64,000 nucleotides of DNA, from positions 40,045,572 through 40,109,571 of the forward strand of contig CP154954.1 in NCBI GenBank assembly GCA_039621445.1, read 5' to 3'. Made by a program: the position numbers and the translations under genes. The notes beneath the pieces were generated by a model. That model was not told where the DNA came from and ran no database searches. It saw only the letters and a program-made list of their open reading frames with translations. Shown one piece after another: positions 1 through 30,554 of this stretch (the stretch's first letter is position 1; every line of letters starts with the position of its first letter). The stretch is from Euglena gracilis. Taxonomy: Eukaryota.

Positions 1-813
1 ACCAGGGGGGGGGGTTGAGCTCTTGTATTTTTTCATATTTTTATATTTTATTCTTTGGCAACTTTGGCAATAACTTGGACATTTTTGTTCGCCAAAAAAA
101 ATGTTCCTACTTGAAATTTTATTGAAAAGCGGTGGGACTTGAAAAAATGACTTGAAAATGCATTGGAAACATGAAAGAAATTGGCCCCAGGCACACTTGG
201 GGAGGGGGCTTCATATTGGGGGAGTGGGAAAATAAAAAAAATTGTTCCCTCGACGTTACTTGTAAAAAATCTCAGACACAGTCGCATTAAACTCAGATTG
301 AATGCTGCCAAAATGAAAGCAGGCCAACCCTGACACCCAGGGTTGTATGAGAAAGCCTGGGGGGGGGGTTCGGACAACCCCAACCAGAGAGTTTTTTAAC
401 CCCGGGGGGGAGGGGTCCAGCTCAGAGGCTGGAAAATTTGGGCTGGCTGGAAAAAGGTTGTTGGCTCCGACCTGGGGTCCAACATCTCAAAAATGCCCCA
501 AAAATGCCAATCATGCAAAAATCGATTTTTGACCCCAAATTTGTCCTGGCCAGCCCTTTTCCGACCTTTTCTTCCTCTGCTACGCCCTGGCCCCAACCCC
601 ATCCTGGTGGGTTGGGGCCAGGGCGTAGCTAGCTTAGGAAGATTTGACCCCCCCCAGGGGGTCCAGCCAGCCAGCAGCCTTTTCCATCCCGGGACCCCCC
701 TCCCCCCCTCAACGAAGTGTATTTAATTCCAACCGCCCGAACAATAACGGATTTTTCGCCTTAAGGGTGCAAAACCGGCCAAAAATATAGGGTTTTCAGG
801 CTTCCCGTACAGT

Positions 814-3443
814 CTTAGGCGGCGCGAATTGCCCAACCGATTTTTGCGTTTTTTGGCGTTTTTTGGCTGTTTTGAAAACACCTAAAAGGGCCAAAGATTT
901 GAGCTGAGAGGGGTGTGTGGCGGCTTTGGGCCAAAATTTAACAGAAGTGGTTTTGCGCGGTATTCCGCTTAGTCGATTTCCGATTGCGTGTGAGTTGTGT
1001 GATTTGGGAGTGTACTAGAACTGTTTGAAATGGCTCGAAAAACACCGACTTTGAACAGGTGTGACATGGGGCTGTGTGTCCATGGTTTATGTTAATAACA
1101 GTATTTGAGAGACGAGTGAACAATACAAGTGTGTGCGGATAACCGCGTAAAACGAAACAAGAGGTGACAAACAGCGGAGTTAAACGGTTGGGCGGTAATC
1201 CGCGCACAATGCACTTGTACGCGGATTACCACGTACAAGTGCAAACAAAGCATGGTGCGCGGATTACCGCGTACCATAACACAACCAGTTGATGACTGGT
1301 GGGAGGGAATCCGCCTGGTATGTGTGCATAGGTGTTGAGTGTAAGGCGACTGGGTGTAAGCGGGAATCCGTGTGGCCGGGTTAAGGGTGAGCAGAAAAAG
1401 CACAGCATTTGTGGACGATGGGATGGGGGGGGGAGATGGAAACCACCCTAGAAATGAAGTCTGCTGGTTTGTTGGCAAAGTTTTGCAACCCTACTTGTGA
1501 CACCAGTCACAGGCGTGAATCTTTGCAAAGGACACGGACGACAGACTTTGTTGCCAGGTCGCCAGGCAGTTTGCAACTGAATGGCGTCTGGCGTGTTGTG
1601 GTGAGTTTGAGGGGTGAAGGTTTATGGAAACCAGGGAGAGGAGATTGAATCAGCAGGGGTTGACCAACCGAGGAGAGACGGCCAGCCCTTAAACTTGGGC
1701 ACTCAGAGCAGGGGTGGTTTCCAAAAGGACCGGACACGCCTGTGCTGAGGGTGGTTACATGGATGGAAGCCAGATGTACCGGGCCAAACATCGACCCGGC
1801 GTTGGTTGAGAACGACCGCCTTCTCGTTTACCCCCCCTCCCACACGGCTTCTGACGGTGGAGACCACCGTTGCCTCCTCCGGAGGCATGTTGCCGACCCC
1901 AAAGGAAGAAGAGCCAGAAAAAAAGAGGTGGTTTGGGCATTTTGCCTGAAATTCAGCAAAAACTGCAGCTTTTCAAAGGAAAAATGCTGTAACACTGTTT
2001 CAAAAAACAATTGAAAAGGCCTTGATTTTCTCAGAACCTGGAGGACTCCTTCCGAAAACCCCCGAAATTGTTCGACTGCTGCCACCAACTGCTGAAACAG
2101 GAGTTTCTCCGTCCATATCTTGAATCACTTCTTTGTCAGCCTTCCCCAAACCCTGATTTTGGGAAACCAAGACCGTTGGGTTCCAGGAGGAGGGCTCTGG
2201 GAGGTGCTTTTGTTCCTCCTGAGAAATCAACCTCAGTTTTTTGGCCGTTTTTCGGGACAGTAACAAAACACCTTCTCTACCGTAGCTCACCGGCCTGGCA
2301 ACTGACACATGCGTTCCACTGCTCTCCCTGCAGCCACCCCTTCAGCACTAGCCAGGGGGAACATTACCGCCTCCTCATTGGAGAGGAGGGTGTACACCTC
2401 CTGCTCAAATGCCAGGCGGGTTTCCGCCTGCTCGGTTGCTTGCTGTCACGGTGCAGCAGCCACAGCTCCCTTTCAACCTGTCCCGACCAACTGTCAAAAA
2501 CGATGTCGCCACACGTCACCACTGACACCGACACTTTGGGACACCAAAACATCACAAACACAACGCATCAGGACAGCAACAAGCTCCACGCGGGTTGCCA
2601 CCCAAACCTCATCTGTGCGGAAACCCGCGCAAACTAAAAACAAAGTAGGCGGATAACCGCGCACTGCCATCATTCAATAACGACCCAAAGTCCCCTCCCT
2701 CTCCCCCAAACTTGTTCATTAACAACTTCACGTGATGACCCAGTTCTGGAGGTTTCAGCACGTTCCCACTTCCCGCTCCCACATGTCATCCACAAACACG
2801 AACTGTTCTCATTCTGAAACCCTTCTGCGCGGGTTTCCGCCTGAGGAATCATCACTTCTGTACGCGGTAAACCGTGTAACCTCGTTTTTAACGTTCATTC
2901 CCAGTCCAGTCCCCTCCGTTAGGCCAGCATCTCTTCATCACAAAAACTCATTTTGCGCGGTTTACCGCTTAAAACATCTCTTCCAAGAAATCGTAGCATC
3001 TGTTGGGCAGTGCTGTGTGTTCACCTCCCCCGTCACTGGACATCGGGACTCATGAGATGTTCAAAAATGCGCGGGTTGCTTAAGCGGTTGCCTTCTCTTC
3101 ACCTGCCACACCGTGTCACCCCCCCTCCAGAGGGGGGGTCCGACAGCAACGCCAAACAACCCGGGCTCCGGTGGCCAGGTGTTCTCTGGCTGTTTTCTGT
3201 TTTTCAAAATTTCAGGGCGTTCCAGGGGGGTGTTTTCCAAACCCCCCCCTAAAACGACCATAAATTCTCAATATCGCCACTTTGTCAAAATGCTTAAAAT
3301 GGACCCTTAACGACCCAAATTTTTGTGCTGGGGTCATCCTCTCAAAATTTCGAGCACATAACAGTGAATTTCGTAAACGGAAACCTGCGCACCCCAAGCG
3401 TGCAAAAAATCGCAAAAAATTTGGGCAATTCGCGCCGCCTAAG
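814..3443. mobile_element. Non-autonomous TIR DNA transposon, CTTAGG-terminal family, 5-bp TSD
   Basis: Perfect 23-bp TIR CTTAGGCGGCGCGAATTGCCCAA (814-836) / TTGGGCAATTCGCGCCGCCTAAG (3421-3443), flanked by direct repeat ACAGT (809-813, 3444-3448). No recognisable intact ORF inside. Confidence 0.92.
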
Positions 3444-4164
3444 ACAGTCCTGCTGACACCTCATTCTGACTCGGGTTCAACATAAATCTTCAAAAACTAG
3501 GAAGACATTGCTAAACCATGGCTCCTCACTTCTTCAAGTTACTGCTCTGCAGACATGGAGTTAGTGCAAAACTGTTCGTTTTTAAAAATGGAACAACAGA
3601 TTTTCTGCAGGGAATTGCATTGAGGTTATTTGGCCAGCCAGCAATCAGGAATTTCGTCAAAATGTTGGCTGCGCTGTCGTTTCCCCCATACCCCCCCCCC
3701 CCTGGGAAATTGTCTCCAGATAAGTCAGCGGGAACAGAGGTAGGAGACAGGTCCCTCCCTATAAAGACAGATCAGCGGGTACAGAGGGCAGAGGACAGTT
3801 TCCCTGGCAGATCCGGGTCAGAGGAAAAATGGTTGACATTTTCGACCCCCGGTGCAAAAAAGGTCAGAAAAGCATTTTTTTCACGAAATTTGTAACGAGA
3901 AGCCTGAAGGGAATGGTGGGATTTATTTTTTTTACCGTGGGAATCGCCTCTTTTTTAAAAACAGAAAATCGGAAAATTTTCAAAAATTCCTCAAGAGGCA
4001 GGTCAGCGCAGCGGGTGCAAGGGTGGGAGACAGCTCTCTATGAGGACAGGCCAGTGGGTGTGGGGGGGGGTAGAGGACAGTTTCCGGGGGGGGGGGGTAC
4101 GATGGGCCAGCAACAAGGTATCCCCCAACAGTTGCAAGCATTGCTTATGAGTCCGTCTGTTAGC

Positions 4165-7100
4165 CCAACCGGCCCCTCTTCGGTGCCGGCGGTGGCGGCG
4201 GTGGGGTCGGACGGCGGGGCCGCGACCTCCAGGGGAGGGGAAGGGGCGCTCCCTGCGGGGGCATCCCCGCTGTAGGCCAGCGCTGGCAGGCGGGCCGATG
4301 CAGAGGTGGGGCCGGGGGGCCCCTGCGCGGTGGCGGGCCTGGCGGCGGGGGTTGGGGAGCCTGCACGATGCTGGGCGGCTGGAACGCTTCTCAGCTGGCG
4401 GCTTCAAAGACCTCCGGGGGGGGGGGGGGGGGTGGGATGTGCTCTGGGGGGCACACACTGTGGGGACGCACACTAGGTTGAGGAATTCCGGTGGGAAATG
4501 CTGGGAATTGGTCGATGGGTTTGCCTCCCCGACTCGCCCCCCAAAACAAGCGCCTTTTGGATGGGCCAACCCCAACCCATCCCGAGGCCCCCCAACGCCC
4601 GGGCAGGCAGCCACGGGTTGCCCACTGCCGCCGCCGCCGCCGCCGCCAGCAATGCCCGCCGCCGCCCTCGTGGGCCCTTCAGGGGCGACGACGGGCAAAC
4701 AGCCACCGGCCGCCGTTGGGGCGAAGGCTGTTTGTTGAAAGAGGGGTTTCCCCGTAACTGAGCCGACCAACTGCCCCGACCACTTCCTCAATCCTTCAGA
4801 GTTGACCGAACGAGGGTCTGAGAAATGGGCATGGGTTCATGGGTCATGAGTGGGTTCCACGGTTGGCGGCGTTCTGCCTCATTTGCTCACGCATGGGCAG
4901 GGGGGGGGGGAATGCGCTGGACGGCCCTCGGAAAAAAATGCGCAAAAATGCGCAAAAAATGCGCTGAGTTTGTGTGTGACATTCCTAAGGGAAAAAGGAC
5001 TTAGAAAAATTTCCGACAGTAAACCCAAAAAATGCGCATTCTTTGAAAAATTGACAAAAATGTGCAAAAAATGCGCAAAAATGCGGAAAAATGCGCAACG
5101 CATCCCCCCCTGCCTCATCGTCATTGGATGAGTACCCACAGCACATCATCCAAGGGTTTTCTCTTGAGGCGGGTCCCTTCGGTGAAAAAAAAAGTGCGAA
5201 AATGGGTTCGTTGGTTACAGAAATGGGTCAGTTGAACATGGACAAAATTCGGTGAGCATGTGATTTGGGTGGAAAATGTGCAAAAATGGCAAAATGTGCA
5301 AAATTGGGTAAAAAATGCGCAAAAAATGTGCAAAAATGGAAAATGTGCAAAATTGGGCAAAAATGCGCAAAAAAACGCGGAAAAAAATGGAAAATGTGCA
5401 AAAATGGGGGAAATGTGCAAAAAATGCGCAAAAAAATGCGCAAAAATGCGCATTTTTGAAAAATTGACAAAAATGCGCAAACAAATGCGCAAAAATGCGG
5501 AAAAATGCGCAGCGCATTCCCCCCCCCCCCCCCGCATGGGTCTGCTGCTGGGGGTGGGTTCAACGTTTTTGGTCCTGGGATAATCCGCCTCTCACAGAGG
5601 AAGCCACGGTCCCTGCCGCGGTGCGTCGGCGTACCCGTCCCCGTCGTGGAGGGGAACGGCACACAGCGCGGTTAGCTGCCGTGACTGCCGGGGCAGGCGG
5701 GCCAGCAGCGCCAGCAGCGCCGGTAGCGCAGCCAGCCCCAGCGCCAGGGACACATGGGAGCCCCGGGGGGGGGGGTCCGGACCCACCCATCTCGAAACCC
5801 CAATTTGCAACTTAAATAAATAAACCCCCCTCCACCTATAACCCCGGGGGTTATAGGATTCGATGGTCGGCCCCGGGAGGGGGGTTATAGGTGGGGGGTG
5901 GGTTTGGTGGGGTGGGTGGTTTTGCCTTTGTTTGCCCTACATTGAAGGGGGGGGGGTTATAGGTCCTGGTTTGGTGGTTGGTCCCCAGAGGGGGCTATAA
6001 GATGGGGGGGTTATAGGTGGGAGTGGGTGTTTAAACTGTAAACTTTTCGGTTCCTTGATCAAAAGGCTGGACACCAGCCCAAAACCGTTGGAAAACCCCT
6101 CATTTAAAAAAAACAAATGAAAAAAGGGGCTCATTTTAAACTTAAGATTCTCTTGACTTCTTCCCCCTCTCCCCCAGGGGGAAGGGCTTCCCATGGATCA
6201 GAGGATTTCTTAAGGACCCTGGGGGGTCCAGCCTCCGGCGGGAAAAAAGGATGCTGGCTGGAAACGAGCTGCTGGCTGTACCCCCCCCCCGGGGGGGCTA
6301 GGGGGGGTCCGGGGCTGGAGGGGGCTGTGCTGGTCTAAAACAATTTTGCCTTCTCGACATTTTGATTTTGATGGATGGAGGTAGTGTATGTGCCAGACAT
6401 TGAGGGCGATGAGAAAAAAAATGCAGGGATAGGTGAGCTGGGCAGCCCAGTTGGCTGGCCAGCCTGCGGCCAGCTGGCCCGGCCTCTGGCCGGGCTGGAC
6501 CCAACTTATTTCTCTCGACTCCCTGGGGGGGGCTCCCAGCCCCGATTTAGGCTGCTGGCTGGATTTGAGCTGCTGGCTGGGAGGGGACCCCCCCCCAGGG
6601 GATGGGGTCCCCTCCGGCTTAAGCAATCCCCTGCCATGGATCCCTGCCCAGCACGCCCACTGCCGCGTAGCCGGTGGCAGGGGCGGGGCCGCCGCTCTGC
6701 CACAAATGGCGAAGCAAGCCCTCCGCTGCCAACAGCGAGATCAGGTGGTTCCCTGGTGCAGTGGCTCGGACCACACCGGACCCAACCGCCCGGGGGGGGG
6801 GGGGGCTTCATTGGGACAATGTTGCCCCAGCGAATGGCCAAAAGCCTCGAAAAATGGGTTGCAGGTTCTCCCGGCAGTGTGGGGGTGCGAATTTGGAGGG
6901 GCCAAATTGACCCTAAAAAGCCCGGGGTCAACAAGCTGAGGGGTGGGGGAGGTAGGTGTGGTCCAACGGATGGCTGACAAAGGACCTGTTGTGGAAGTTC
7001 GTCCGAGAACGTTGGGGTTATACGAAGGAGGGTAAAACTGGTGTAACTCGGGCCAGGTGTAAAATCAAAATTGATACAAACAGATGCATAGGACCACGGG

Positions 7101-8612
7101 GGATAGTTTTCTCCAGCACAACTTCCTTCGGAAATACTGGAAACTTTGTTGCTCCCGAGGAGGTCCCGAGGAGGAGGACTCTGTCAAGAGGCCTCGTGTG
7201 GAACCGAAATTCCCATTTTTTTAATTGGGGAACGTCAGTGGGACATGGTTCACTTTGATTGTTGTTCAAGCGCTGTTGGAACGAAGACAAGATACATTGT
7301 TTGGGCCGTTTTGCAGCTGACGTGTGAGTGCCAAATGCGGTTCAAAACAAAAAATCAATTCGCGCCACGGTGAAAGCAATTGTCTGTTGTTCCTCATTTT
7401 TGGTCCCCGAGCTGAGCAGAGCGGCGGAGCAATGCTGGGCGGGACGGTCCCCGGCGGCCGGCGGGGGAGAGCTATCCCGATCGCCGGGGACCGCGAGGGC
7501 GGCCGGTGGGGGCCCCGGCCCCCCAGCGGCGCCCCAGTGCCCCCGGCGGCGGTGGCGGCGGCCACAGCCCGGGCGTGGAGGAGGGTGGTGGGCTGGGGGA
7601 GGGCGGCGGAGGCGGCGACGGCAGGGGGGGGGATGGCGGAAGGAGAGATTTCCGCCGGGGGAAATGCAAAAGAGCAGATCACGGGAGGGTGTCACTGAGC
7701 AACCCTCTGGGTGAGAGTTAGGCTGGCGGGAAAAAGGTTGCTGCCTGACCCCCCTCCCCACTCAGCGGTCTTCTGGCTGGAACTGGGCCTGAGGGGTGGA
7801 ACCGGGCGCCAAAAAAATCGAAACTGCAAAAATGCCCCAAAAACTGCACAAAATCCCAATTCTGCCCAATAATGCGAAAAAAAATCCGGAGTTTTCGGCC
7901 CAAAATTTCAGCTTGCCGGCACTTTTCCGACCGAGTTTGCCCATTTTTTCCGCCCATTTTTTGCGCCCTCGAGCGCCAAAATTTGGTAAAAGTCGAGCCG
8001 TTCTTTGGGTGGCTGCAAAACAAATAAAACTCGTTGATGGGAGGGGAGGGAGGGTCCGAGGCTGGGAAAAGGCTGCCCGCTGGCTGGACCCCCCGGTGAG
8101 GATGGGGTGCCCTTCGGCTTAAGCGACGACCTGATGGTCAAGCATCAACCACGGCGACAAGACGAGTGGTATGGCATTGGCGGTAAATCGACACGAGTAC
8201 CCCAGATGTCCGTTGGAGGATGGTGTAGGCTTTGAAGTCCCCGGGGGACGGTCACCCACCCAGCCCTGTGTGGGACTTGCAGAGGTGAACGGAGAGGAGG
8301 GGAGGGAGGGGAGTGCAAGGAGAAGGGGCACTGCGTTCATCGGCACCCCCCCCCCTGGCCGTGCAGGGCGACCAGGCACAGGAGGGCGGCCCACAGGGCC
8401 CCCAGCACCGCCGCGGCCAGCTGTGCACAGCAGCGGCCTGCGGCGGTCACATGACGAACAAAAACAGGGGTGTTGGTGCTGTTGGGGGGGGGTGCTCATC
8501 ATTCAGTGACTCACAGAGCACCGGGTTGCCGTTCTACGCCGCGCCGTCTGGCTGCACGGCTGGGCGAGTGCGCCGGGCGGGGCAGGGGCGGGGCTGGCGG
8601 CCAGGCGGCCAT
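4165..8612 (-). CDS. Multi-exon host gene with euglenid class I plastid-targeting presequence and probable Tat lumen signal; 3' end unresolved
   Basis: Exons 8612-8522, 8437-8361, 7616-~7420, ~6780-6650, 5739-~5600, 4727-~4596 and possibly ~4400-4165. Spliced N-terminus gives TM1 (QLAAAVLGALWAALLCLVALH), a P/A/T-rich spacer, TM2 (YAAVGVLGLAALPALLALLA) followed by basic RLPRQSR, and later GRRRALLAAAAAAAVGNPWLPARA. Junction 8521-8438 is GT-AG; 8360-7617 and 6649-5740 are non-conventional; all three keep frame. Other junctions not resolved. Confidence 0.65.
4898..5535. repeat. Two copies/fragments of an AAAATGCGC-rich MITE-like family
   Basis: CAG(G)nAATGCG...GCAT(C)nTG ends at 4898-5112 and a 3' fragment at ~5262-5535; same family as 25768-26214. 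Confidence 0.7.
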
Positions 8613-10351
8613 CCGCTGGCTGCGGCGGAGAGAAAAAAATTCCTTTTTGTTGGCCGGAAGTCTCAGTTGAAGTACAGAAATTCTCGGGAAAATTAATATA
8701 CATGAACCAGCGTAAAATCTGACCTGTCGATCTTGAGCCAACCGCTGCCAAACAGGTGTGGGGAGGGGGGGCACAACTCCTTGAGGGCTTTGGCTAAACC
8801 AAATGCCAGGGGGTTCCGTTCGAAGGGGTTCTGCGGTTTAATTCCAGTTGGTGGGCCCAGGGACCTTTCCAGAAACGCAGCTTTTGGTCGCTCCAGCTGG
8901 ACCCAAGGATGGTGCAAAAAAAAACCTGTCGAGTGTCTGCAGAGACTCCGGTCGGCCAAAAATTTATTCCGGGGTTTTATTCTGGTTTATTCTGGGGTTT
9001 TCCGGTTTATTCCGGTTTATTCCGGTGAATTTCTGCCTGAATGGACTTTGGATTTTTTGAAGTACAATTGGGCCGAGGCGCTCACCTGGGCTGCAGGAAT
9101 AAGGAAGCATTCCTTGGTTGCCCAGCCCCACAAAGTGGTCACTTTCTTAGGCGGCCGAATTCGCACTTAAGCTTTTTTCCGTTGGATTTGCGCAATTGCG
9201 CAAATGTACCACTTTTTTTGTAACCCCTGGGACCCTGTACCCTGACCGCCGAAAAAAAATTTTGTGATCGCGAACGGAACTCGTTAGGGTTGGGCAATTC
9301 GAACCCCTTCGAATACAAAGTCCTAACTGGACTTCGCGAACGAACGTACGTGTTAAATTTTGTACCTGTCCCTCTCCGCAGCTGCTTTCTTTCCCGCTGC
9401 CTGCGGGGCACCTATCTACACCCACTCTTACCCCACAGCTGCCCGCGGCAAGCACCTGGCCAGATCTGGCGGCGTACGGTTTTGGACTTTTGGGTCACGA
9501 AATGTGACCTGTGGATTCCAATTGTTTGACGGACGATGCATTGAGACAACCCTGGTGGATTTGAGAATTATTGCGAGGGTGTGTTGGGTGCCAGGACTTG
9601 CGAATTACGAAGCAATTGATTATGTTCGAAGAGGGGTATGACACCCCCTGTCTTGAAGGAGTGCGAGGAAACACCCATCGAATTAGAACCTTCCAGTTGG
9701 TGTACAACAAAAATTTACTTGTGGCAAATTGCACACTTGCGCAATTGCGCGCATCAAACGATTGTGTGTACTTTAATCTTTTGGGGTGCTAAGAGGGTGG
9801 GTGAGATGTCCCAAATTGTGTCATACATGAAGAGTGTTCTAGTTTTACTTGCGCAATTGCGCGCACAATTTGTTACTTTTTGTTGTGCGGTTACCCAGTG
9901 GGTGTTGTGTGACCAATGAAACACTTTGGACGTTATCGGTCACTTAGTGGAGCGAAGGGGGGCTTGATTTGAATGACTGCTGGAGATGTTGTGACTCTGT
10001 AGATGCTATGCTGACAACCAATTTGCGAGTGTGTGCGTGATGTGCGGGGTGGTTATGGCCATATGCTGATGTTTAATTGCTGTTCCCTTGTCTGGAGCTA
10101 ACCTACATGGCGGATGACCAGGCGGGGTACAGCTGTGGATTGTTGTGATCGTGTTTTCTTGTTGACTTGCGCAATTGCGCGCACAAAACGTTTCTGAAGA
10201 AAATAAAATGACTCAGAAGGATGTGTAGTTGCGTAGTGTGTGAATGTTGTGTGCGTGCGATGCATTCTGAGTGGTGGGAGTGGCCGGTGTTATGTTGACG
10301 GAATAGTGGGTTGGTGAAAGGTGGTGGGCCGCCGGACCTGGGGTGGACTGA

Positions 10352-13300
10352 ATGGAGTCCTCCCAGGCCAGCAGCACCCACTCCCGCCGCCGTGGCTACG
10401 AGGGCTACAGCGAGGAGGCCGCCCTGGCCGCGGAGTCCGGGAAGCTGCTGGGCCAGCTGGTGAAGGCCCATTTCGCCGCCAGCTACGACGAGTTCGTGGC
10501 GGCGGTGGTTCAGCGCGGCCACCCGCTGCAGACCCTGGTGGTGCAGGTGGCCCACACCCGGGTGCCGCTGCGGACGGAGGGCGGTGCGGCGCTGCTGGAG
10601 GAGCTGGCCCGGGAGCCCCGGCGGCCGCGGATCGAGCTGCTGCTCAAGGACGCCTGGGCGGTGTACCGGGCGCTCCGACAGCACGCCTGCCCGCGCGCGG
10701 CGCAGCGGGTGGTGGCGGAGGAGCACGAGGCGCCGCTGGCGAGGCACCGGGCGGCCAGCCGACTGCTGCGGCCCAGCGGGATCCTGCCGGAGGAGCCGAT
10801 GTGGAACCGGCAGTGGCGGCGGCAGCGGGCCTGCGAGCGCCTGGAGGACCTGTGGCAGCAGTCGGAGGGGCGAAGCTGCGTCCTGTGGTTCGACAACTTC
10901 TGGAAGCGGGCCATGACGTCGAACCCGAGGATGGTGATCCGCACCCACGACTGCTGCGTCATGGCGATGATGCGGACGGCGGTGGGCGCCATCCCGGAGT
11001 ACCCGGGGTACCCGTCGCTGGAGCAGCTGCTGGGCCGCGTCCACCGGGTGTCCGCGCGGCTGGTGCGCAGCGACCTGCCGGCGTTCCTGGAGCTGGTCGC
11101 CGAGATCGGCGCACGCCCGCTGGAGGCGCAGGAGCTGCGCGTACCGCTGGACGTGCCCCGAACATCAGAGGGACTGAATGGTTTTTTGTTTTCTTCGAAT
11201 AGCCTGTGTAGGTTGATGGGACGATGCTGGTGTGAATAACCTGTGTATGTTGATGCCGATGCCTGGGGGTTAGGGTTGTGTCCGGGTCCCAGCTGAAGGG
11301 AATTGAATTACACTGTGATGTGCGCGCAATTGCGCAAATGTTAACAATGAAGTATTTGAATTTCAGTGTGGTACGCAATTGGCAGGCGGTACTATACGCG
11401 GATTTCTGTTTTGTGGTGTCAGTCGCATTTGATTTGCGCATTTGCGCACACATGTGAATTTGGATGATTTTCAGTCCTGGGCCACTGTCTGCGTCCGTCG
11501 AATGTTTCTGAAGTAACTTTTGATGCGCGCATTTGCGCAAATGCGCGCATCAAAACATTTCAGGGTCCGTTTTGAATCAGAGGTGTGACTGTGCAGTTGG
11601 TGTCACGCAAAAGGCGGTGACTCTGATGCGGCTGAGAGAACGCCCGCGTCCCGGTGTGGCGCCCCTTCATGCTGACGGACGACCGGATCTCCTCGCAGGT
11701 GGGGATGCTGAAGGTCCTCCGGTTCCTGAAGGGCGACGTGCTGGGCCGCGTGAAGGCGCCGCTGCCCCTGCTGGTGGACATCAACCTCTGGTACCGCCAG
11801 CTGAAGGTGGTGTACGGCCGGGAGTGCCAGCGGTGGGACGCGGGCGAGGCGCTGCGGCAGCTGCCCCCGCTGTACGGCGTGTGGCACGCGTACAAGCAGG
11901 TGCTGTACGTGCTGTACCGCCGCCTGCTGCCGCTGTTCCTCTTCTTGCAGCGGGGCACCATGGCGCCAGGCGAGCAGTGGTCGACCAAGCCGAAGGTGCG
12001 GGCGCTGGAGATGTGGGTCGGCGCCATGCTGCTGGTGCCGGCGGACCGCCGCGCCCGCCTGCGACGGCTGATCCGGACCCTGCGGCGGCGGCGGGACACC
12101 GTGGCGCCGGAGGTGGAGCGACGACGGCAGCAGACGCAGCAGGCCCGGCGCAGGCAGGAGGAGGCGGAGCGGCAGACCGCCCGACAGGTGCGGCACGCGA
12201 CGGCCAGCGCCAAGATGGAGCGGGCGTGGCAGTCGGGGAGCCGGGAGATGGAGTGCATCCGGGCGCTGGAGCACTGCCGCCGGAAGGAGGCTCAGGCGGT
12301 GGAGGCACTGGAGCATCTGGAGCGGGACCTGGCGGTGGCACAGGCGTTGGAGGACCTGCTGGTGGTGTGGGCGCCGGCCTGCTTCGCGCTGGGGTGGCAG
12401 GTGCGGGAGTGCCACTGGGAGGAGCGGCGGCCGCAGACCGGCGGGCAGGCGCGGAAGGTGCTGTGCAACGCCCTGACGATGCTGCTGCACCTGGAGGCGC
12501 CGACACCCGGACACCGGCCGCGCGGCCACTCCGACTACGTGCGGACGCTGGCGTGCGCGCTGCTGATGTGGGACGGGTGGCACGAGCAGCTGCCCGCCTG
12601 CTGCTTCTCGGAGGAGGTGAACGAGGCCACCCTCAGCAGGCTGGGCGGGTCCATGCAGCAGCACCCGGAGGCGGTGGAGGTGGAGGACGTGATGGACCTG
12701 TACCTCCTGGTGAGGCAGGGGCACCACGGCGCCCGGGAGCTGCGAGCGGGCGGGGTGGACCGGCGGTGGCTGGCGGACTGCCTGCGCAACCTGGACCACC
12801 TGCTGGACGGCAGTGAGCTGCGGCCGCCGGTGGACGCCCCCGACCGGCTGGTCCACCAGATGGTGACGTACGCCTCGGTGAGGGGGCTGCGCCCGGAGCG
12901 ACGGCGACAGCCGGAGGAGCTGGACGCGGACGAGGGGGAGGAGTCCGAGGACCAGTCCGTGGTCCCGCGGTGGCCGGACGGCTGGGAGGGTCCGCCGTCC
13001 ATGCTGGCGCCCGACGCGGGGCTGAAGGGCGAGACGGTCCTGAAGGACGTGCTGCAGTACGCGCTGCGGACGCTCCTGAAGGACCAGGTGCCCTCCGCCG
13101 ACGCGGCGGCGGAGCTGGACCAGCTGTGCTACGACGCGCAGGCTGGCAGCAGCCGGCGGTCGCAGGCGGAGGTGGACCTGTGCCAGGTCCACTGGGACAG
13201 CGTGCTGGGTCGCCGCCGTCCACGTCAGCAGAGGGCTGCTGGGGAGGCAGCAGCCAGACTCGCGGTTGGTCATTTACTTTCTGGGGGGAGGGCTGTAATT

Positions 13301-14047
13301 ACTGCCACCGTTGTTCTGCTGACATGATTCACGGAGGAATACCAAAGTGTATTGTAGCATTTGCGCATTTGCGCGCATCAAACGTTAAGAAAAAATATGC
13401 AAGTGGGTGGTGATGCTGTCAGTAGTGACGTACCTTGTAATGATGATTACACTTTTTTATTTGCGCAATTGCGCGCATCAAAAACGTGAACTGTTTCACA
13501 TTGATCCCAATAGACAAGTGTGGTAGGCCCCTTCTGTGTATTGTGTCTGGCACAGAGTTCCTTCACACCCCCTTGAAAGTAATGACCCATCAGTCACAGC
13601 GTTTGCATACCTGTTACGTGCTCCGTGTTTGTTTGGGTAATTCTCTGTGTTCTGAAAGCCGGGGGAAAGGTACTGAACGTTTGTAGCTGTGTAGTTTTCA
13701 GAGTGTGACCGTTTTTGAGAATAGGCTGTCAAACCCCCCTCCCAGAAGCCATACATTGTGTTACATTTGCGCAATTGCGCGCATCAAAAGTGTACTTTAA
13801 AATTTCACTGCAGTGGGGCACTGCGAGTCTGCCGTTGCCCGTGGCTGCTGACTCGTCGTCGGAGGGGTCCCTGCGTGAGCGACCGACTCGACGGTCGCGA
13901 TTCGAATCACCAGGCCCTGACACGTCACCTCAGCGGCCGGGCGGGCGAGTGCAAGGCGGAGCGCGGGGCGGCCACCAGCAGTCGGGACACTGTGGAGCCG
14001 AGGGCGTCCCACGCGTACGTCCCGGCGGACCCCTTCCAGGGGTCTGA
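10352..14047 (+). CDS. Putative DDE transposase, 878 aa, 3 exons
   Basis: Exons 10352-11159, 11634-13251 and 13837-14047 join in frame through two non-conventional introns (2637 nt). Motifs in expected order: VLWFDNF (D1), PLLVDINL (D2), PLYGVWH (GxxH), SDYVR, FSEEVNE (E). The N-terminus could extend upstream. Confidence 0.75.
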
Positions 14048-14559
14048 CTGAGCGGATTTTCTGATGAGGCGAGGATTCAGTAACTTTTGATACAAGTGAC
14101 GCCACGCTTTATTTCACGGATCAATCGGTGCGCCGTTACGAGGTGCATGTGCGCCAAAAGAAAAAAATTGAAAACTCCCCTCCGTACGCCTTCTACATTT
14201 CCAAAAAAGCAGGCCTACGGACGTCCAACGGCAAACCGCCCGTGCGTTAGCAGTTACGCGACCTGAATGCGTGACGTGTCACCCCCGGTTTGTGTTGGGC
14301 ATTTTGTGACACAGACAGGCCGTGAAAGATTACAAAAACGTAGCATATCCATACCCCCCCTTGCTACGGACCAGAATAATGCATGTTGTGCGCTCCGTTG
14401 TACTGTTTCACAGTTTTTCTATTTTTTGCCTGAAAATGCCTAAGTCGGATGAATTTTTGCCACATTTGGGGCGGGTTGCCTCCCGTGGGGTGGAAGGCGT
14501 TTAAAATGCGCTTCATTCAGCTGTTGAATGTGTAGTTCAGTCACTGGTTAGAAACCCCC

Positions 14560-14590
14560 CCTTTTTGAAAATTGCCTCAGGTCGCACACC
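14560..14590 (+). promoter_or_regulatory. Putative spliced-leader trans-splice acceptor of transposon gene B
   Basis: Partly pyrimidine-rich stretch ending CCTCAG (14580), 10 nt before ATG 14591. Confidence 0.4.
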
Positions 14591-17500
14591 ATGGCCGACC
14601 CTGTGGCTGTCCCCCCGGAGGGGGAGCCCGCCGTCCCCGGACAGGCGGAGCCCGGGACCGAGGTGGCGGCGTCCGGAGCGGAGCTCGCCCCGGCCGAGCC
14701 CGCGGCAGCCCAGGAGCCCAAGCCCGCCGCCAAGCCGGGGCGGGTACGCCCCCGCAACACCGCCCGGAAGCTCCCCATCGCGGAGGTGTACAAAGAAAAG
14801 GTGGAGCAGTGGGTGCTGGCGACCAGCACCAAACTCCCCCTCGACACCCTCCACGTCGACTACGGGATGACGGAGGGCCAGACCCGCCCCCTCGACAACA
14901 ACGAAGTGGAGCGCAAGCTCCGGCAGCTGCAGCTCAACCCCCCGCTGGAGCCGGTGAGGGTGACGGTCTGGAAGAAGGCCGGTGTGTCTCTCAGTGTGAT
15001 TGTGTGTTATATGACTGTGTGAGGTGTGACGGTCTCTCTGACATCAGTTAGCCTGTGGAGTCTCTGTTGGTATGTGGGGCTCTGCTTTGGCCACTGTGCT
15101 TTGCATGGTTGGTACTATTTGATTTGCGCAATTGCGCGCACAAGCACACAATGCATTTTATTTGCGCAATTGCGCGCACAAGCACACAATGTCATTTGAT
15201 TTGCGCAATCGCGCGCACAAGCACACAATGTCATTTGATTTGCGCAATTGCGCGCACATCCTGCCACTGTTTTCACAGAGAACCACTACGTGCTGATGTC
15301 GGGGCAGCACATCACCTCGGCGCTGAAGCGCTGGGCGGAGGGCTTCAGGTCCCAGAAGTTGAACCCCCCGAAGGATTCAGCTCTGTATTTCTTTGTGTGT
15401 TTTTTGTTTTGCCCCTCCCATGTCACCCCTCTCGTGCAGCCCCTCTCGTGCAGCCCCTCTCGTGACGCCCCTCTCATGCCACCCCTCTCGTGTCGCCCCT
15501 CCTGTGCAGCCCCTCCCAGGTCTCGCAGACAATGGTGCAAATACAGGGCTGTGGCCAGGCGAAGTACGTCCTCGCCACCATCCTCCACCCCTTGACCCCG
15601 GTGCACCTGCGGCGGGCGGCCGGCGGGGATGCGCAGGCCATCCAGTTGTCGGTGAAGGAGCTGTCCATCCCCCAGTTCGCCAACCTCCTGGTGAAGGGGA
15701 AGGACATCAGCACAGTGCCGGCGGTGCGGCTGGCGGCGGCCTACCGGCAGGCCGGCTGGGACCGGTCGGTCCCCCAGGTGTGAGCCCAGTCCAGTACTTC
15801 TGCCACAGCTCCCATGCATTTAGTTAGATGACGTTGTTCCCATTTTATTTGCGCAACTGCGCGCATAAAAATGTTTCACAAAGACGTAGTGCATTGTCAT
15901 GATGTACTGGCGTAGGGTTCCAGTCTCTGTGTCATTGCCTCAGGGGCAGGTCATCCAGATGTGGGGGCCGCTGCAGCGGCTGGTGGAGGAGAACCCGGAG
16001 GCGGTGGCGGGGCTGCTGAGCGTCGAGTCGGCGCTGGCGGCGAGGGGCCGCACGCTGCTGTCCTCCCACGTGCGGTCCCTCCGGCGGCTGCTGACCCCCG
16101 AGGCGCGGGCGCAGGTGGCGGCGGCGCTGCGGAGCCCGGGGATCGGCCTGGCCCAGCTGGAGCAGGCGGTGACCGAGGCCACCCACGAGATGTGGTGGCC
16201 TTCGCGTGGCGGGGCGACAACCCCAACATCCACGCGCGGATGGGTGTGCCACTGGGGTCTGCGTGGGTCGGGGTTGCATATGAAGGGTGCCCATAGCATT
16301 GGACGGCGGTTGGTGGTGATGGTCACTGGGTGCATTGCAAGTGTGGTCACGTGCTTCTCCCCCCCCCCTTCACTGTTGTCTCGCAGTGCACAACGGGGCG
16401 GAGCGCAGCCGCTTCAAGCGGACCGTCCCGGTGGCGGCGCTGCAGGTGGCGAGGCTCGGGTCGTGGACCTGGAGCCCGGCGGAGCCGAAGCCCCCGCTGG
16501 CGGCGGTGCTGACGGCCCCCTTCTGGGTGGAGGCGCAGTACAAGGAGCTGCGGGCCACCTTCGCCTTCCCGACGGTGGAGACCGAGGTGGTGGCCAAGGA
16601 GGGCGGGGCCCTCCAGGAGGTGGGGGTGGCCCGGCCGGCCGGGGAGGAGAAGGGGGTGCGCTGCCTGGTGTACCAGGCCAGCGGCGGAGCGGTCCCGGCG
16701 GAGGCGCTGGGGGCCGCAGTGGCCTCGTCGCCATCGAGGTCACCCACAACACGGGCTCAGGGTTCTGTTTAAACGTGAGTCTTTTCAATTTTAGTAGTTT
16801 CTGTTTCACTTGCGCAATTGCGCGCACAAAAAAAAGAAATTCATACTCCCACTCTCAACAGAAACAGCTCCCCAGTTGTGTATGCAATTTTTTTTTAAAT
16901 TTGATGCGCGCACTTGCGCAAATGTTTTGTTGCACGCACTTGCGCAAATCCAATGACTCAAGGTGTCTGTCAATGCTCCAACACACTCTCAAACAGAATC
17001 CTGCCCCCTCCTGTCCGAGCAGGTCAAGCGCCTGGCCGGCGTCGTGCCGGTCGCCATCTACGGCGGTGCCGGGGCGGTGGCTGCGGTGGAGGCGGCGGTG
17101 CGGCGGCTGGCGCCGGGGCGGGAGTCGGTGACGGTGGACGTCTGGCTGCGGCAGGGGGGCCAGGGGGTGGCCCGCAAGTTCGAGAAGCGGGCCCTGGTGG
17201 TCGTGTACGGCCCGGGTGACGTGGAGCGAAGCAAGGTACCCACCCCACCTCACGCATTCTGCAGATTGTCATTCCGCATTTCAGACAGTGGATACTGGAG
17301 GGTCACCCATCCAGTGCATCTTTTTTAAAATGTGATCGTTTGATGCGCGCAATTGCGCGCACCTTATACAAGAAAACTCTTTCAGCCTTCCATGCCTGTC
17401 TGGTCCCATCGTGCCCTCGCAGGTGCTGCCCAAGGTGGAGTGGGACGTGGAGTCCAGCTGCGGGCAGGGGCTGCACTGGCTGTGCGTGGAGTGGCTGTGG

Positions 17501-18773
17501 CGGAGGGTGGCGCGGCGGATGGAGGCCGCCAACGCCATGGTGATCCAGACCACCGACGCCGCGGTGGCCGGCCGGGTGGCGGCCTGGGCAGCCAAGCCCC
17601 CGGAGGTGCTGGTGGTGGTGGAGGACTCGGCCAGCAGCCTGGAGGACGTCACCCAGACCGTGGCCAACACGGTGACCCTGCCCCGGCCCGTCGCCTCCGC
17701 CATGCTGCCCCTCCTGCTGGCCGCCCTGGAAGGGGGGGACGCCCTCTGGGCCCCCCTGGAGAACGCCGCCCTGCAGGACAAGCTCCGCCTGGCCGCTGAG
17801 GAGGCGGGACGAAGGGCCAAGGAGGCCGAGGAGCGGCGCCGCCAGACCAAGATCCGGCAGGAGCAGCGCCGCCTGCAGAAGCTGGAGGAGCGCCAGAAGG
17901 GTGGGGCTGACCGGAAGAAGAAGCGCCGGAAGAAGGAGCCGGAGAAGAGGCCCAGCAGGCCCCCAGTCCCCAAGCCCCGACGGGAGGAGACCGAGGCGGT
18001 GGACAGCCCGGAGGAGGGCGACGTGGAGATGACCGCGCCCGGCCGGGAGACCCCGGAGCTGACCCCGCCCGAACCCGGAGCCAGCCCCATCATCGTGCCG
18101 CCGCCGGTGGCCCAGCCCAGCCGCCACCCGGAGGAGGAGGAGGTGGAGGAGGACAGTAGCAGCAGCAGCAGCAGCAGCAGTGACAGCTCGGACACCTCCT
18201 CCGCAGTCGCCAGCGAAGCTCCCGCGGTCCCACCAGTGCAGCAGGGAGAAGAGGAAGAGGAGGAGGACACCATCGAGGAGATCACCCCCGGGTACCGGAA
18301 GCCGGAGCCGCAGAAGGGGAAGGAGCGACAGGGGGAGGAGAAGAAGGGGGAGGGCAAGGGCAAGGGCAAGGGCAAGGGAGCCAAGGAGGACACCCGGTGG
18401 AAGGCGGCGGGACTGATCCGTCCCCCGGGCCCGGGGGAGGCCCTGAAGCCTGAAGGGCCCCAAGTCGTACCACCTCCTCGACCCCAAGAAGTACCCGGCG
18501 ATGAAGCACATCGTCGAGGCATCCAAGGCCAAGGTGGCCGCGGAGGCAGCGTCGTCGCAGGCAGCGGCGGCCTCGGCACCGGCGGCGACGCAGGAGGCGG
18601 AGTCCGAGGAGGAGGAGTCCGAGGAGGAGGAGGCCCCGGCACCGCCACCGCCTCGTACCGCCCCGCCTGCGGCGCCCCGGAGCACCGTCCGCCGCGGGCT
18701 GCCCAAGCCCGGCGCCAAGCCGGCGGCCGCCTCGGAGAGCCTGGCCAAGCGGCTCACCAAGCACAAGAAGTGA
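14591..18773 (+). pseudogene. Transposon accessory gene: ParB/Srx-like N-terminus, possible degenerate methyltransferase fold, coiled-coil and acidic tail; two frameshifts in this copy (~965 aa if repaired)
   Basis: Exons 14591-14981, 15279-15374, 15557-15777, 15944-16243, 16387-16718, 17023-17235, 17423-18773. Spliced sequence GQTRPLDNNEVERKLRQLQLNPPLEPVRVTVWKKAENHYVLMSGQHITSAL. Frame is restored by adding one G near 16193 and removing the CCTGAAG duplication at 18442-18455. Confidence 0.7.
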
Positions 18774-20972
18774 GACTGGCTGTGGGCCTGTCTCAGCACC
18801 TTCTTCTTTTTTTTTCTTCAGTTCTACTCCCCACTCCATTCTCTGCTTCTCATGTTTTTTTTTTAACAAAACACATTTGATGCGCGCATTTGCGCAAATG
18901 TTACAGTTACAAGTTTGTTTCCCCCTCTCAGTCCCCTCTCGGCTATGGTCTGTCCCCTCTCAGAATTCTTGGTTCAAATAAAAAAGTTCATCGTTTGTGT
19001 TGATGCGCGCAATTGCGCAAATCAAATGCACACTTTGTTTTTTTGTTATTTGCCTGCCAGTTGGGAGACAGTGCCCCACCGCCATGGGTGTCCGTGTACA
19101 CCGCCCCCCTGCTGACCGTCATCCCCACGCCCTCTACCCTGCAGGGAGGTGGACTTCTGTTTTTTTTTTTTGTGGGTTGGTGTGACACACCCCCTCTCGT
19201 GACCCTGCAGCCCCCCTCTCGTGTCGTGCTGCCCCTCTCGCCCGTGTTCAAAAAAAAATAATTACCCCTCCCCTCAAGCACCGCCCCCCACTGACAACCA
19301 GCGCGCGGCGGAGTGCGGGGCGGCCCCCCTCCTCCTGTTCAGCCCCGGGCGGCCAGCGTGTACCCCCGCCCGCCGGGGGTCTGTTTGCCAGTCGGCCTTT
19401 TTTCTTTCCCCTCCTGTCTTTTCATCCCCATCTCTTTCAATCATGTGGTTCTTCCATTGGCACCCCTCTCATCCCATGGCACGCACACCGTCGTACGTTT
19501 TATTTGCGCAATTGCGCGCATCAACATCAATTATCTGTTTTGTGACTCAAAAAAAACAGCAAGGGCAAAGTAATGCGTGGCACGCACGCAAGCCTCCACA
19601 CACAGGCAACCAGGCCACCACTGACAACCCCTGCGGGCGCCTGACCCCCACCGCCCTGCCCGCCGCACACCACCCCTGCACACCCCCTGCACCGTCACCC
19701 CTGCACCCCTGGACCCCTCCTCCCCCTATCCCCTGCACACCGGACCCCCCAACCCGCACCCCTCCCAGAGCCCTGCCACCCTGTCCCCTGCTTTCTTCAC
19801 CAATCAAAAATTCCCAAGTCTCCAAGGTAAAAGTACACACACACACACTCCGAGGCACCGGGAGGGAACACACTGCCGGCGAGTTTGCTTTCCCAAAAAA
19901 GGCTCCGCGTCACCACAGGGGCGGGCAGGGTCCCGGTCCCCAGGTGCTTTTTTCACTTTTTTTCCGTTTGGGCGGGCAGGGTCCCGGGGGTTTGGCCCAA
20001 AATAAAATTTCTGGACACCCAAAAAAAGCCAGTTTTTTGTCAAAGTCCCAGGGGTCTCTCCGCCAAAACCAAAAAATCGCTTCGTTTTTGCCCCTGCTGG
20101 CCGGCATGTCTCTTGAACCCCCGGACCTTCACTGCCGGAATCAAAAAACCGGGGGATTTGCGCATATGCGCAAATAAAAAGTTAAATCCTTAAGTGCGAA
20201 TTAGGCCGCCTAAGACTTTGCACTTGGTGGTGCTGGTCTGCACACCACAGCAAATGCCTGCCTTTTCGGGAGAAATAAGCTGATAAACATTGGCGCGCCC
20301 AGGGTTTTCTCTTGAGGCAAGTCCCTGGCACCGCTTTCTTTCTTTCTTCCCAAAAATTGTCCCGCCGAGTGATAATTGCTTGTTCCAAGGTGCGGGACTA
20401 AAAAAAAACCTCATAAATGCCGCACTCATTGCGCAATGTCCCAGCGCAATCATGGGGTCGCTCAGCAGCAAAGCGAAAATCAACTTCCCTATTCCAATAA
20501 AACCCCCCTCCCCTAGAAAGTGCACGGGTGCGCACATTTTAAGGACGGTTTGGGCCCCAAGGGGTGCGCAATTATCAGGGCACTGCACACTTATCACGAC
20601 AAAGCACAAAAATGCTTAATTTTCCACCACTCTTTTTCAATTTTCTCCCTCCTTGCAATGTCAAGCAATGCGTCAAGTGATTATGTGTTGTATTTGGGCT
20701 TGGACAATAGAAATTTTGGTCTGAGAAGGACAATTCTGATAATGTTGTGTCCTTTTCGACCTGAGATGACAGTGATTTCTCCTTTGGGGGGGGTGCCGAC
20801 TTTTTAGGGAGGTAAATTCGGATCCTTTGGGGGGGGGTGGCCTAAATTGAATAAAGTGTCATTAACCACTTCACCAGTAGCTTGTGCTCGATCTCACGGC
20901 TGGCCCATTTGCACTCCATGAAAACACACCCACCACGTACCGTTTTTCTCCTCGCGCAACTGTTTGAGCACA

Positions 20973-22453: not shown

Positions 22454-23130
22454 GGCAGCTCCCAACTATACGGCCCACGGGTCAGATACTTGGGAGTGGG
22501 GGGGGTCGTATGGTGGGACCCAGGTCCGACCTTTCGAAGAAAGTCAGGGTTTTGATTGGAATAGGGTTAGGGTTCCGGCCGGCGGGCCGTAGGGCACCCA
22601 TTTTTGGTCAGGGAGAAGTTAGGTCGCATTCTGGACGAATTTGGGCCGAATTTAGGCCAAATTCAGGCAAATTTCGGGCGAAATGTGTTTTCAAAAATCT
22701 TCCGAAATAGAGACCTAACCTCTGGCCTAACTTACTCCCTAAATTTGGCTGATTCTTGGCACGCCAATCCTAACCGGCAGCTCCCCACTATAGGGCCCCC
22801 CCAGGGGGGGGCATATAGTGGGGAGGGGGGGGGGTCAGAATAGCTTTTTTTGCATTAATGATGGAGTAGAGTTAGGTGCGCGACTTAGGGTTAGGGTTAG
22901 ACCTAACTTATAGACGGGTGTTCGGTGTACAAGTTAGGCCTAACCCTAAGCCTAAGTCGCGCACCTAACCCTACTCCATCATTAATGCAACAAACACCCC
23001 CCCCCCTACTCCCAACTATATGGCCCCCCCTGGGGGGCATAGAGTTGGGAGCTGCCTCCTAACCCTAACCCTATTCCTAAAATTCAGCAGGAACCCTCCC
23101 CGAATCTGCCACCGGTTGCCGGAAAACCGG
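22454..23130. mobile_element. GGCAGC-terminal non-autonomous element, interrupted and truncated
   Basis: Starts GGCAGCTCCCAACTA; body is the reverse complement of much of 23754-24263; interrupted by the MITE at 22776-23056. Confidence 0.7.
22776..23056. mobile_element. MITE, GGCAGC termini, 8-bp TSD, internal TTAGGG/CCCTAA arms
   Basis: GGCAGCTCCC...GGGAGCTGCC, TSD TCCTAACC (22768-22775, 23057-23064). Confidence 0.88.
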
Positions 23131-23277
23131 TCATGTGCAAAGAAATGTCATTGTCAAATGTCATGTGCAAAGAAAACGGCATTTTGGGTGCGGGAAAATG
23201 CGGTTGATCTGGGCGGTGTGTCATAGACCAGCCGTGTCGGGGACAAAGGGGGTGGGAAGGTATGTGTAAATTTTTAC

Positions 23278-23552
23278 GGCAGCCCGAAACTACTGGCCCC
23301 TCCCGGGGGGCCCAGTAGTTAATCCGGGGGTCAAATAGTTTTTTTGCGTTAATGATGGAATAGGGTTATGTGCGCGATTTAGGGTTAGGGTTAGGCCTAA
23401 CTGGTACACCGAACACCCGTCTATAAGTTAGGCCTAACCCTAACCCTAAGTCGCGCACCTAACCCTATTCCATCATTAACGCAAAAAAACTATTTTGACC
23501 CCCCCGGATTAACTACTGGCCCCCCGGGGGGGCCCAGTAGTTTCGGGCTGCC
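23278..23552. mobile_element. MITE, GGCAGC termini, 8-bp TSD, near-fully palindromic with telomeric-type repeats
   Basis: GGCAGCCCGAAACTACTGG...CCAGTAGTTTCGGGCTGCC, TSD ATTTTTAC (23270-23277, 23553-23560). Confidence 0.9.
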
Positions 23553-23753
23553 ATTTTTACTTATTTTTGCCATCGTGGAGGAGGCACAAAAAAGTTTGTG
23601 GCCACACTGCAGTGTGGAAAAAACAACAGGTTTTCTCTTTGGTGCCGCAGTACTTGTGGCACTTGCAATAAACATCACCAGTCAGTAACAAAAAAAGTAC
23701 GCAGTGGCGGCACAAAAAACGTCATTCTTCTGGTTCTTCCACCAGCTCCAAAT

Positions 23754-30513: not shown

Positions 30514-30554
<41 letters not shown>

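Follow-up and report, generated by a model that had tools for sequence, protein, structure and literature searches.

An intact predicted DDE transposase gene in a high-copy 11-kb transposon of Euglena gracilis, most likely of a separate lineage

The P, hAT and Transib transposases and the RAG1 recombinase fall into one structural class of DDE (Asp-Asp-Glu) enzymes and are told apart by accessory domains, by their termini and by the target site duplication (TSD) they leave. P superfamily members combine THAP and P-element transposase domains and make an 8-bp TSD, hAT transposases carry a CxxH motif, and the termini recognized by Transib and RAG1 read CAC. In the accessible text of PMC12730594, hAT5 elements make 5-bp TSDs, and C(2)C and H(3-4)H motifs mark the CMC, Transib and RAG1 proteins. 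For the Academ superfamily, an excerpt of PMC10045372 gives TSDs of 3-4 bp (AcademX) or 9-10 bp (AcademH) and an encoded nuclease or helicase, and a portion of PMC5751038 states that the Academ core had no Pfam counterpart in 2017. Motifs recalling both Academ/DUF6589-type and Transib/RAG1 proteins were previously pointed out, from the letters alone, in a gene of Euglena gracilis (here called the original prediction). The gene lies in a 64,000-nucleotide stretch of contig CP154954.1 (assembly GCA_039621445.1, positions 40,045,572 to 40,109,571, forward strand), which as a whole is termed the window and is numbered from its first letter. Analysis of the window makes it very probable that 10352-13327 is the DDE transposase gene of an 11,069-bp cut-and-paste transposon, which most likely represents a separate lineage.

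The transposon and its split transposase gene

The transposon spans 9146-20214, with the transposase gene inside. Its left terminal inverted repeat (TIR; 9146-9171, + strand) starts with CTTAGGCGGCC and is identical at 25 of its 26 bp to the reverse complement of its partner at 20189-20214 (- strand), a single position differing. Immediately outside the TIRs lie two perfect copies of the 5-bp TSD ACTTT, at 9141-9145 and 20215-20219. Near-perfect TIRs and a 5-bp TSD had been announced in the original prediction and are borne out, at positions beyond the 10352-14047 span assigned there to the gene; its remark that the termini are not CAC is equally correct, as the ends read CTTAGG. Paired TIRs, a TSD and multiple copies, the features by which TIR cut-and-paste transposons are recognized, are all found. 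In the public sequencing run X1, 58 contigs diverge from the window exactly before 9146 (agreement 0.37), and such unlike sequence in front of a shared left end fits many insertion sites. What occupies 9146-20214 is thus no host gene but a real transposon of the TIR kind.

The family to which this element belongs is very high-copy in its host. Part of the gene occurs in 20 of the 24 public runs listed, and four runs (X1, X15, X17 and X20), all in the form of contigs, were aligned on 8800-20600 (11.8 kb). A run labeled leaf litter contains a small share and is given no weight as a sign of habitat. At 90% identity or more, X1 alone yields 22,006 contig pieces, with 7,428 at 90-95%, 8,253 at 95-99% and 6,325 at 99% or above. 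Among the rows listed for the four runs, no insertion or deletion falls within the transposase exons. The recent activity suggested by the original prediction is upheld in part: the open frame and near-perfect TIRs are present and the many pieces that are at least 99% alike make recent amplification plausible, whereas the window copy itself may be immobile. The flanks at 8800-9145 and 20220-20600 are also at very high summed depth in X1, so the element probably sits inside other repeats. The joints listed have mostly sides of 20-27 letters at the palindromic boxes described below and are not taken for deletion derivatives.

The transposase gene appears as two open pieces on the + strand in the same frame, 10352-11239 and 11636-13327. 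In a tblastn comparison, residues 5-255 of the full-length relative P0002 align with 10409-11161 and residues 258-776 with 11642-13210. This colinear match to both pieces indicates a single gene split by one intron, with about two P0002 residues spanning an intron of roughly 470 nt. Exon 1 (10352-11161, + strand; from the open reading frame (ORF) and tblastn) encodes an N-terminal helical region, strands 1 and 2 of the predicted fold and the first Asp; its end depends on the gene model and falls at 11161 or else runs on to 11162 or 11180. Exon 2 (11636-13327, + strand) encodes strands 3-5, the second Asp, a W-H pair, the insertion domain, the Glu-bearing helix and a C-terminal domain, and closes with the stop codon at 13325-13327. 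Between them, intron 1 (approximately 11162-11635, + strand) can be drawn with GT-AG borders at 11181-11636, giving 839 residues with six extra ones in a loop, or with non-canonical borders at 11163-11639, giving 832 residues. Either model keeps the frame and yields one ORF whose sole stop is the terminal one, so that the spliced transposase is uninterrupted over about 835 residues.

Base composition follows the same division. The exons have a GC content of 0.73-0.74 (0.74 in exon 1) and a GC content at third codon positions (GC3) of 0.95-0.96 (0.96 in exon 1), against 0.48 for the whole of intron 1, which contains four of the palindromic boxes. Exon 2 is 54% identical to P0001 over 96% of the query (E 3.9e-162, word-index search), and close homologues stop near the end of the window ORF. 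Coding support ends at 13327, short of the 14047 reached by the original prediction.

Drawn as 11163-11639, intron 1 fits the pattern 5'-N3-CAG...CTG-N5|purine that an excerpt of PMC12501133 gives for non-conventional introns of Euglena. The ends of the intron form an 8-bp pairing in the minimum-energy fold, absent from the centroid, and the remaining introns of the 11-kb element are GT-AG. Taken alone, the intron is a weak hint that the host is a euglenid.

Predicted fold, conserved residues and element ends

The transposase has many relatives. When 1.84 billion representatives were searched exhaustively with HMMER, 589 clusters were returned at E<=1e-3, of which 305 remain at E<=1e-10 and 49 at E<=1e-30; the 150 listed are at most 892 residues long. 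A word-index search with exon 2 found ten proteins, several of 800-890 residues, which also align with exon 1, and a search with alignment A1 found the same ten close relatives and nothing further. P0011 (264 residues) matches the translated exon 2 at residues 205-435 with 94% identity and probably represents a further copy, from this species or one close to it. More distant relatives are represented by five metagenome loci (L001-L005) on contigs of 2-4 kb, too short for element ends.

Two relatives of the window protein were folded with AlphaFold2 (AF2) from 50-sequence alignments. P0002 (799 residues, 52% identical to exon 2) gave a predicted local distance difference test score (pLDDT) of 89.3 and a predicted template modeling score (pTM) of 0.85. 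Its structural match list is swamped by coiled-coil proteins, and for that reason P0040 (680 residues, with a short hairpin) was folded as well (pLDDT 85.6, pTM 0.83). In the P0002 model, strand 1 (159-172, with D165) is followed by strand 2, an inserted helix, a strand hairpin and a helix. Strand 4 (300-302) leads at once to D303, a helix, strand 5 (333-335) and a helix headed by W338 and H339. Then comes a helical insertion with two antiparallel helices, 391-446 (56 residues) and 450-517 (68 residues), before a helix led by E584. The insertion domain is thereby all-helical and lies between strand 5 and the Glu-bearing helix.

Structural searches place this fold among DDE enzymes. When P0040 was compared with VIA-align against 48,161 PDB chains, a search independent of Foldseek, every one of the first 35 rows was a DDE transposase or integrase. 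At the top stood the P element (6p5a_A, Z 10.2, root-mean-square deviation (rmsd) 6.8, 332 residues aligned), with Hermes (Z 8.2, 272 aligned), Tn5 (8.1), ISCth4 (6.6), HzTransib (6.6), RAG1 (5.7) and BbRAGL (5.5) also listed. Simian immunodeficiency virus (SIV) integrase matched with Z 6.6 and an rmsd of 3.3 over 126 residues (model 81..464 against chain 57..193). A second look, confined to the 997 chains aligned by Foldseek, gave Z scores of 10.3 and 10.2 for the P element, 9.2-7.0 for Hermes, 8.0 for HzTransib (318 aligned), 7.2 for ISCth4 and 6.2-4.6 for RAG1 (313 aligned at best); its 16 top rows were all P element, Hermes, Transib, ISCth4 or RAG1, and the first unrelated chain scored 3.6. 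With P0002, Hermes was matched at Z 9.2 over 269 residues (model 136..622 against chain 147..609), in a list otherwise filled by coiled-coil proteins (Z about 12 for residues 391-499). Because these searches return DDE transposases and integrases, the RNase H fold presupposed by the original prediction stands: both AF2 models have an RNase H-like DDE fold. On the models, the enzyme is an intact DDE transposase of the P/hAT/Transib structural class.

The long R/E/Q-rich coiled coil that had been noticed within the insertion domain is likewise recovered. It occupies approximately 12040-12420 (+ strand), corresponding to the P0002 helices 391-446 and 450-517, and forms a two-helix hairpin that resembles AcrA/HlyD-type hairpins at Z 11-12. 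The hairpin is short or absent in P0040 and P0101.

The motifs named in the original prediction are all present and fall on acidic and His positions conserved throughout the family, namely the Asp residues of WFDNF and LVDINLW, the W-H pair and the adjacent Glu residues of SEEVNE. WFDNF lies at 10886-10900, with its Asp codon at 10892-10894, and corresponds to D165 of P0002 and D88 of P0040 in the middle of strand 1. The LVDINLW Asp codon (11777-11779) corresponds to P0002 D303 and P0040 D221, directly after strand 4. YGVWH is found at 11873-11887, its W-H pair (11882-11887) matching W338 and H339, invariant in alignment A1, which open the helix that follows strand 5; DYVR follows at 12533-12544. 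SEEVNE lies at 12608-12625, and its E-E-x-x-E (12611-12625) matches E583, E584 and E587, where the helix behind the insertion begins. All of these are on the + strand.

Conservation was counted in 156 family proteins, with the proteins covering each column as denominator. The first Asp is kept in 74 of 80 and the second in 112 of 124, the latter being invariant in the 50-sequence alignments. W338 is retained in 124/133 and H339 in 123/134, and the Glu columns stand at 107/130 (E583), 114/129 (E584) and 113/129 (E587). In P0002 numbering, the invariant or near-invariant positions are W163, D165, N166, R248, P250, D252, R255, D303, W338, H339, Y341, K342, E380, G509, R513, W517, Y557, W568, E583, E584 and E587, and the window protein retains every one of them. 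Judged by these counts, the motifs are not due to chance. No conserved Cys pair follows the second Asp in the two 50-sequence alignments, as the original prediction had said of the window protein, and from the second Asp to the Glu these alignments have neither a Cys that is invariant or nearly so nor a His pair, as C(2)C or H(3-4)H motifs would require.

The likely active site on these models consists of the WFDNF Asp, the LVDINLW Asp and one Glu of SEEVNE. In both models the first of them lies on strand 1, the second directly behind strand 4 and the third where the helix following the insertion begins. Mapping by offset from the SIV integrase alignment, with D64 and E152 of human immunodeficiency virus (HIV) integrase as reference numbers, would put the integrase strand-1 Asp on P0040 D88 and the integrase Glu on E423/424. 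By sequence alignment these residues would equal P0002 D165 and E583/584, and so the WFDNF Asp and the SEEVNE Glu pair of the window protein.

Short palindromes accompany the ends of the element. The box TGCGCAWWTGCGCR occurs at 19 sites between 9189 and 20172 (22 strand-matches, 0.00 expected). All sites are non-coding and inside the 11-kb element; none lies elsewhere in the 64 kb and none in the transposase exons. The outermost two boxes are perfect palindromes, TGCGCAATTGCGCA at 9189-9202, 43 nt from the left end, and TGCGCATATGCGCA at 20159-20172, 42 nt from the right end. Among the distant relatives, GTCCCGTMKACGGGAC is found five times in L004 and five times in L005 (0.01 expected), two of the L005 copies lying within the long ORF, and L001 and L002 carry different GC-rich palindromes. 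Every lineage of the family thus carries a short, GC-rich palindrome of its own, which recurs along its DNA. By likeness to the subterminal repeats of other transposons, one may conjecture that the boxes are protein-binding sites.

A mechanism can be proposed on this basis. An RNase H-like core interrupted by an all-helical insertion domain with a long coiled-coil hairpin would provide an active site of the WFDNF Asp, the LVDINLW Asp and a SEEVNE Glu, with the invariant W-H close by. A multimer would bind the 26-bp inverted ends and perhaps, 42-43 bp in from each end, the palindromic boxes as well. The element would be cut out and then joined to its target with a 5-bp stagger, and such joining would account for the 5-bp duplication.

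Relation to described transposase families

By sequence, the family finds little counterpart among described proteins. With Pfam, nothing exceeded the threshold for the two window pieces (E<=1), no family matched 33 full-length members (E<=0.1) or the ORFs of the five distant loci (E<=10), and for 50 members (E<=10) nothing rose above chance and no family appeared in more than two members. Matches of the window pieces to Frey (E 0.0046, 17.9 bits against a cut-off of 28.3) and MAS20 were rejected as sub-threshold chance. A 50-member profile run against PDB sequences returned nothing relevant, the chains of Hermes and the P element included, apart from one coiled-coil match at E 0.44. A literature search found no description of a superfamily with these features. 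The new lineage proposed by the original prediction is plausible in light of the Pfam results. The family is most likely a separate lineage, distantly related to the DUF6589 proteins, and probably falls outside the superfamilies Transib, hAT, P and classical Academ. The element is probably best treated as an unclassified lineage pending profile-profile and Repbase comparison.

A further step, taken tentatively, is to grant this unclassified lineage the rank of a superfamily. It would be defined by a P/hAT/Transib-type fold, a remote kinship with DUF6589, a 5-bp TSD, bipartite ends (the 26-bp TIR together with a palindromic box about 42 bp from the terminus), a lineage-specific palindrome repeated throughout the non-coding DNA, probably as a protein-binding site, and amplification to very many copies in a protist, possibly a euglenid, whose genome is large.

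A divergent Academ member with a DUF6589-type core is rather unlikely, and has language-model comparisons in its favor. In the ESM Atlas, clusters of PF20231 (DUF6589) rank first for P0002 (score 0.91, 176 of 256 features shared, 25 of 30 matches) and also for residues 100-640 of the L005 ORF (0.94, 199 of 256, 28 of 30), two queries only about 27% identical to each other. Academ elements are, in the consulted portion of PMC5751038, abundant in the same fungal groups. By these features the DUF6589 proteins of fungi and molluscs are the nearest described ones, without a match at the level of the profile hidden Markov model (HMM): the PF20231 HMM is silent on the window pieces, the 33 and 50 members and the five distant loci at the thresholds given above. 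The Atlas recognition value for P0002, 1593, also stays under the 2300 mark. The kinship with DUF6589 is accordingly offered as a lead. As for Academ itself, the TSD of 5 bp is neither 3-4 nor 9-10 (excerpt of PMC10045372), and exon-sized pieces of the second gene of the element show no nuclease or helicase Pfam domain, in a scan weakened by the split exons. The literature search found no text that equates DUF6589 with the Academ core, returning one unrelated mention each for DUF6589 and PF20231. Of the Academ/DUF6589 likeness in the original prediction, then, the Atlas lead survives, and the HMM and the TSD speak against it.

A divergent hAT transposase, for instance a hAT5-like one, or a P-superfamily transposase is improbable, even though the best structural matches point this way across the whole core and insertion domain. 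The P element (PDB 6p5a, 6pe2) is the best of all, at Z 10.2-10.3 with 283-332 residues aligned, covering the N-terminal helices, the RNase H core and the helical insertion domain. Its internal transposase-binding sites lie at a distance from the ends similar to that of the window boxes, about 40 bp. Hermes (PDB 4d1q, 6dww, 8edg) shares a core split by an all-helical insertion, at Z 8.2-9.2 with 269-280 residues aligned (Hermes 147-609). There is also an aromatic-His pair after the second Asp, in the form G-x-W-H in the window family versus C-x-x-H in hAT. Yet the sequence identity of these structural alignments is 7-10% (9-10% for the P element), and no PDB sequence match to either enzyme was obtained with the profile. 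The 50 members (E<=10) contain no hAT dimerization, BED, THAP or P-element Pfam domain. In place of the GTP-binding insertion domain of the P element, the family has its variable coiled-coil hairpin. The TSD of 5 bp differs from the 8 bp of the P element and fits only the hAT5 group among hAT elements, which otherwise make 8 bp.

Affiliation with the Transib/RAG1 recombinases is very doubtful. The 5-bp TSD and the fold class are shared, and the structures compared (PDB 6pqx, 6pqn, 6oes, 6cij) give Z 6.3-8.0 for HzTransib and 4.6-6.2 for RAG1, with 252-320 residues aligned. The scores of P element and Hermes equal or exceed those of Transib and lie above those of RAG1, so the comparison with RAG1 and Transib structures that the original prediction called for confirms the fold class and not the special affinity, which is abandoned. 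The ends are CTTAGG instead of CAC, and no RAG1 Pfam match was found in the 50 members (E<=10). The conserved C(2)C and H(3-4)H motifs, characteristic of this group in the accessible text of PMC12730594, are absent as well. The 5-bp length had been taken as a Transib/RAG hallmark; the length itself is right, but the same text ascribes 5-bp TSDs to hAT5, and TSD length alone is therefore no pointer to Transib. A domesticated host gene, or a dead relic merely looking intact, is just as slight a prospect: a one-base loss in the second gene, one TIR mismatch, many substitutions relative to the majority of copies and sequence runs that give no proof of transcription would suit it, whereas a host gene is at odds with TIRs and a TSD around the gene and with the entire 11 kb in very many diverged copies, and a relic with a transposase ORF free of stops and frameshifts over about 2.5 kb, a GC3 of 0.95-0.96 and retention of the conserved residues.

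Several points weigh against the reading of 10352-13327 as the transposase gene of a separate cut-and-paste lineage. The folded models are relatives 52% and about 30% identical to the window protein, a Z score near 10 is moderate for models of 680-800 residues, and Foldseek never reached E<=0.001, its rows giving Hermes at 0.05-0.1, the P element at 0.07-0.3 and HzTransib at 0.08 (best values 0.05 for Hermes and 0.07 for the P element). The clustering of the three acidic residues would follow from topology and alignment ranges, and D252 and E380 (P0002 numbering) are further conserved acidic residues. The two frame-keeping gene models place the borders of intron 1 differently, and no spliced contig across the intron is among the 15 joints listed. 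X20, the sole certain RNA library, yields 52 pieces over 26 of 30 bins, non-coding parts included, and because of this coverage it is no proof of transcription; the remaining 'RNA?' run labels are guesses. No contig bridging an empty site turned up in the four runs. Many positions set the window copy apart from the majority of the family, and with the one-base loss in its second gene it may be immobile. Finally, the family may already bear a name in Repbase or Dfam.

The transposase reading gives hypothetical proteins of genomes and metagenomes, in 589 clusters or more, a function, and it offers a testable hint on the nature of the DUF6589 proteins. It would add to the P/hAT/Transib/RAG1 class an enzyme with a 5-bp stagger and without the zinc motifs of Transib, which bears on the evolution of target spacing and of the insertion domain in the lineage leading to V(D)J recombination. 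On the practical side, the family makes up a large part of the host repeats and should be masked in gene annotation, and since its transposase is intact and its ends are defined, the element is a candidate tool for genetic work on a group of protists in which such tools are scarce.

Second gene, short element and the rest of the window

A second multi-exon gene lies within the 11-kb element at approximately 14591-18800 (+ strand), recognizable by GC-rich ORF blocks with GT-AG borders. Behind 16193, most of the X1 depth and all of X15, X17 and X20 have an extra G relative to the window copy; with one base fewer than most copies, the gene is probably frameshifted here. Seven exon-sized pieces, among nine pieces scanned, gave no Pfam match, a scan weakened by the split exons, and residues 20-180 of the largest exon had no homologues among proteins of 282-900 residues. 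A ParB-like N-terminus was a by-eye impression that found no support and was dropped. The gene includes a long acidic and lysine-rich low-complexity exon at about 17440-18800.

A short non-coding element occupies 814-3443 (2,630 bp), with perfect 23-bp TIRs and the TSD ACAGT (809-813 and 3444-3448), so that both elements of the window have 5-bp TSDs. Its terminal ten bases, CTTAGGCGGC, are common to it and the 11-kb element, and the four exact occurrences of CTTAGGCGGC in the window are exactly the four termini of these two elements. Beyond this decamer the two show no similarity, and the short one contains no long ORF. A non-autonomous relative, belonging to a different family of this kind of element, is the probable reading. 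In the rest of the window, blastn with the 11-kb element found nothing and tblastn with five family members found no second transposase copy.

The window as a whole has a eukaryotic look and alternates between GC-rich blocks (0.72-0.74) and blocks near 0.45-0.58. More GC-rich, exon-like blocks are seen at 4000-8600, 28000-32000 and 44000-48000, and 14 long ORFs across the window, these blocks included, had no Pfam match. Long inverted repeats are densely nested at 22458-24256, with many runs of C and G and with arms of up to 150 nt that are 91-96% complementary; a foldback-type element or a nested TIR element may be present there. At 4933-5511 and 25802-25892 a unit of 10-11 nt, AAAAATGCGC(A), is repeated in tandem.

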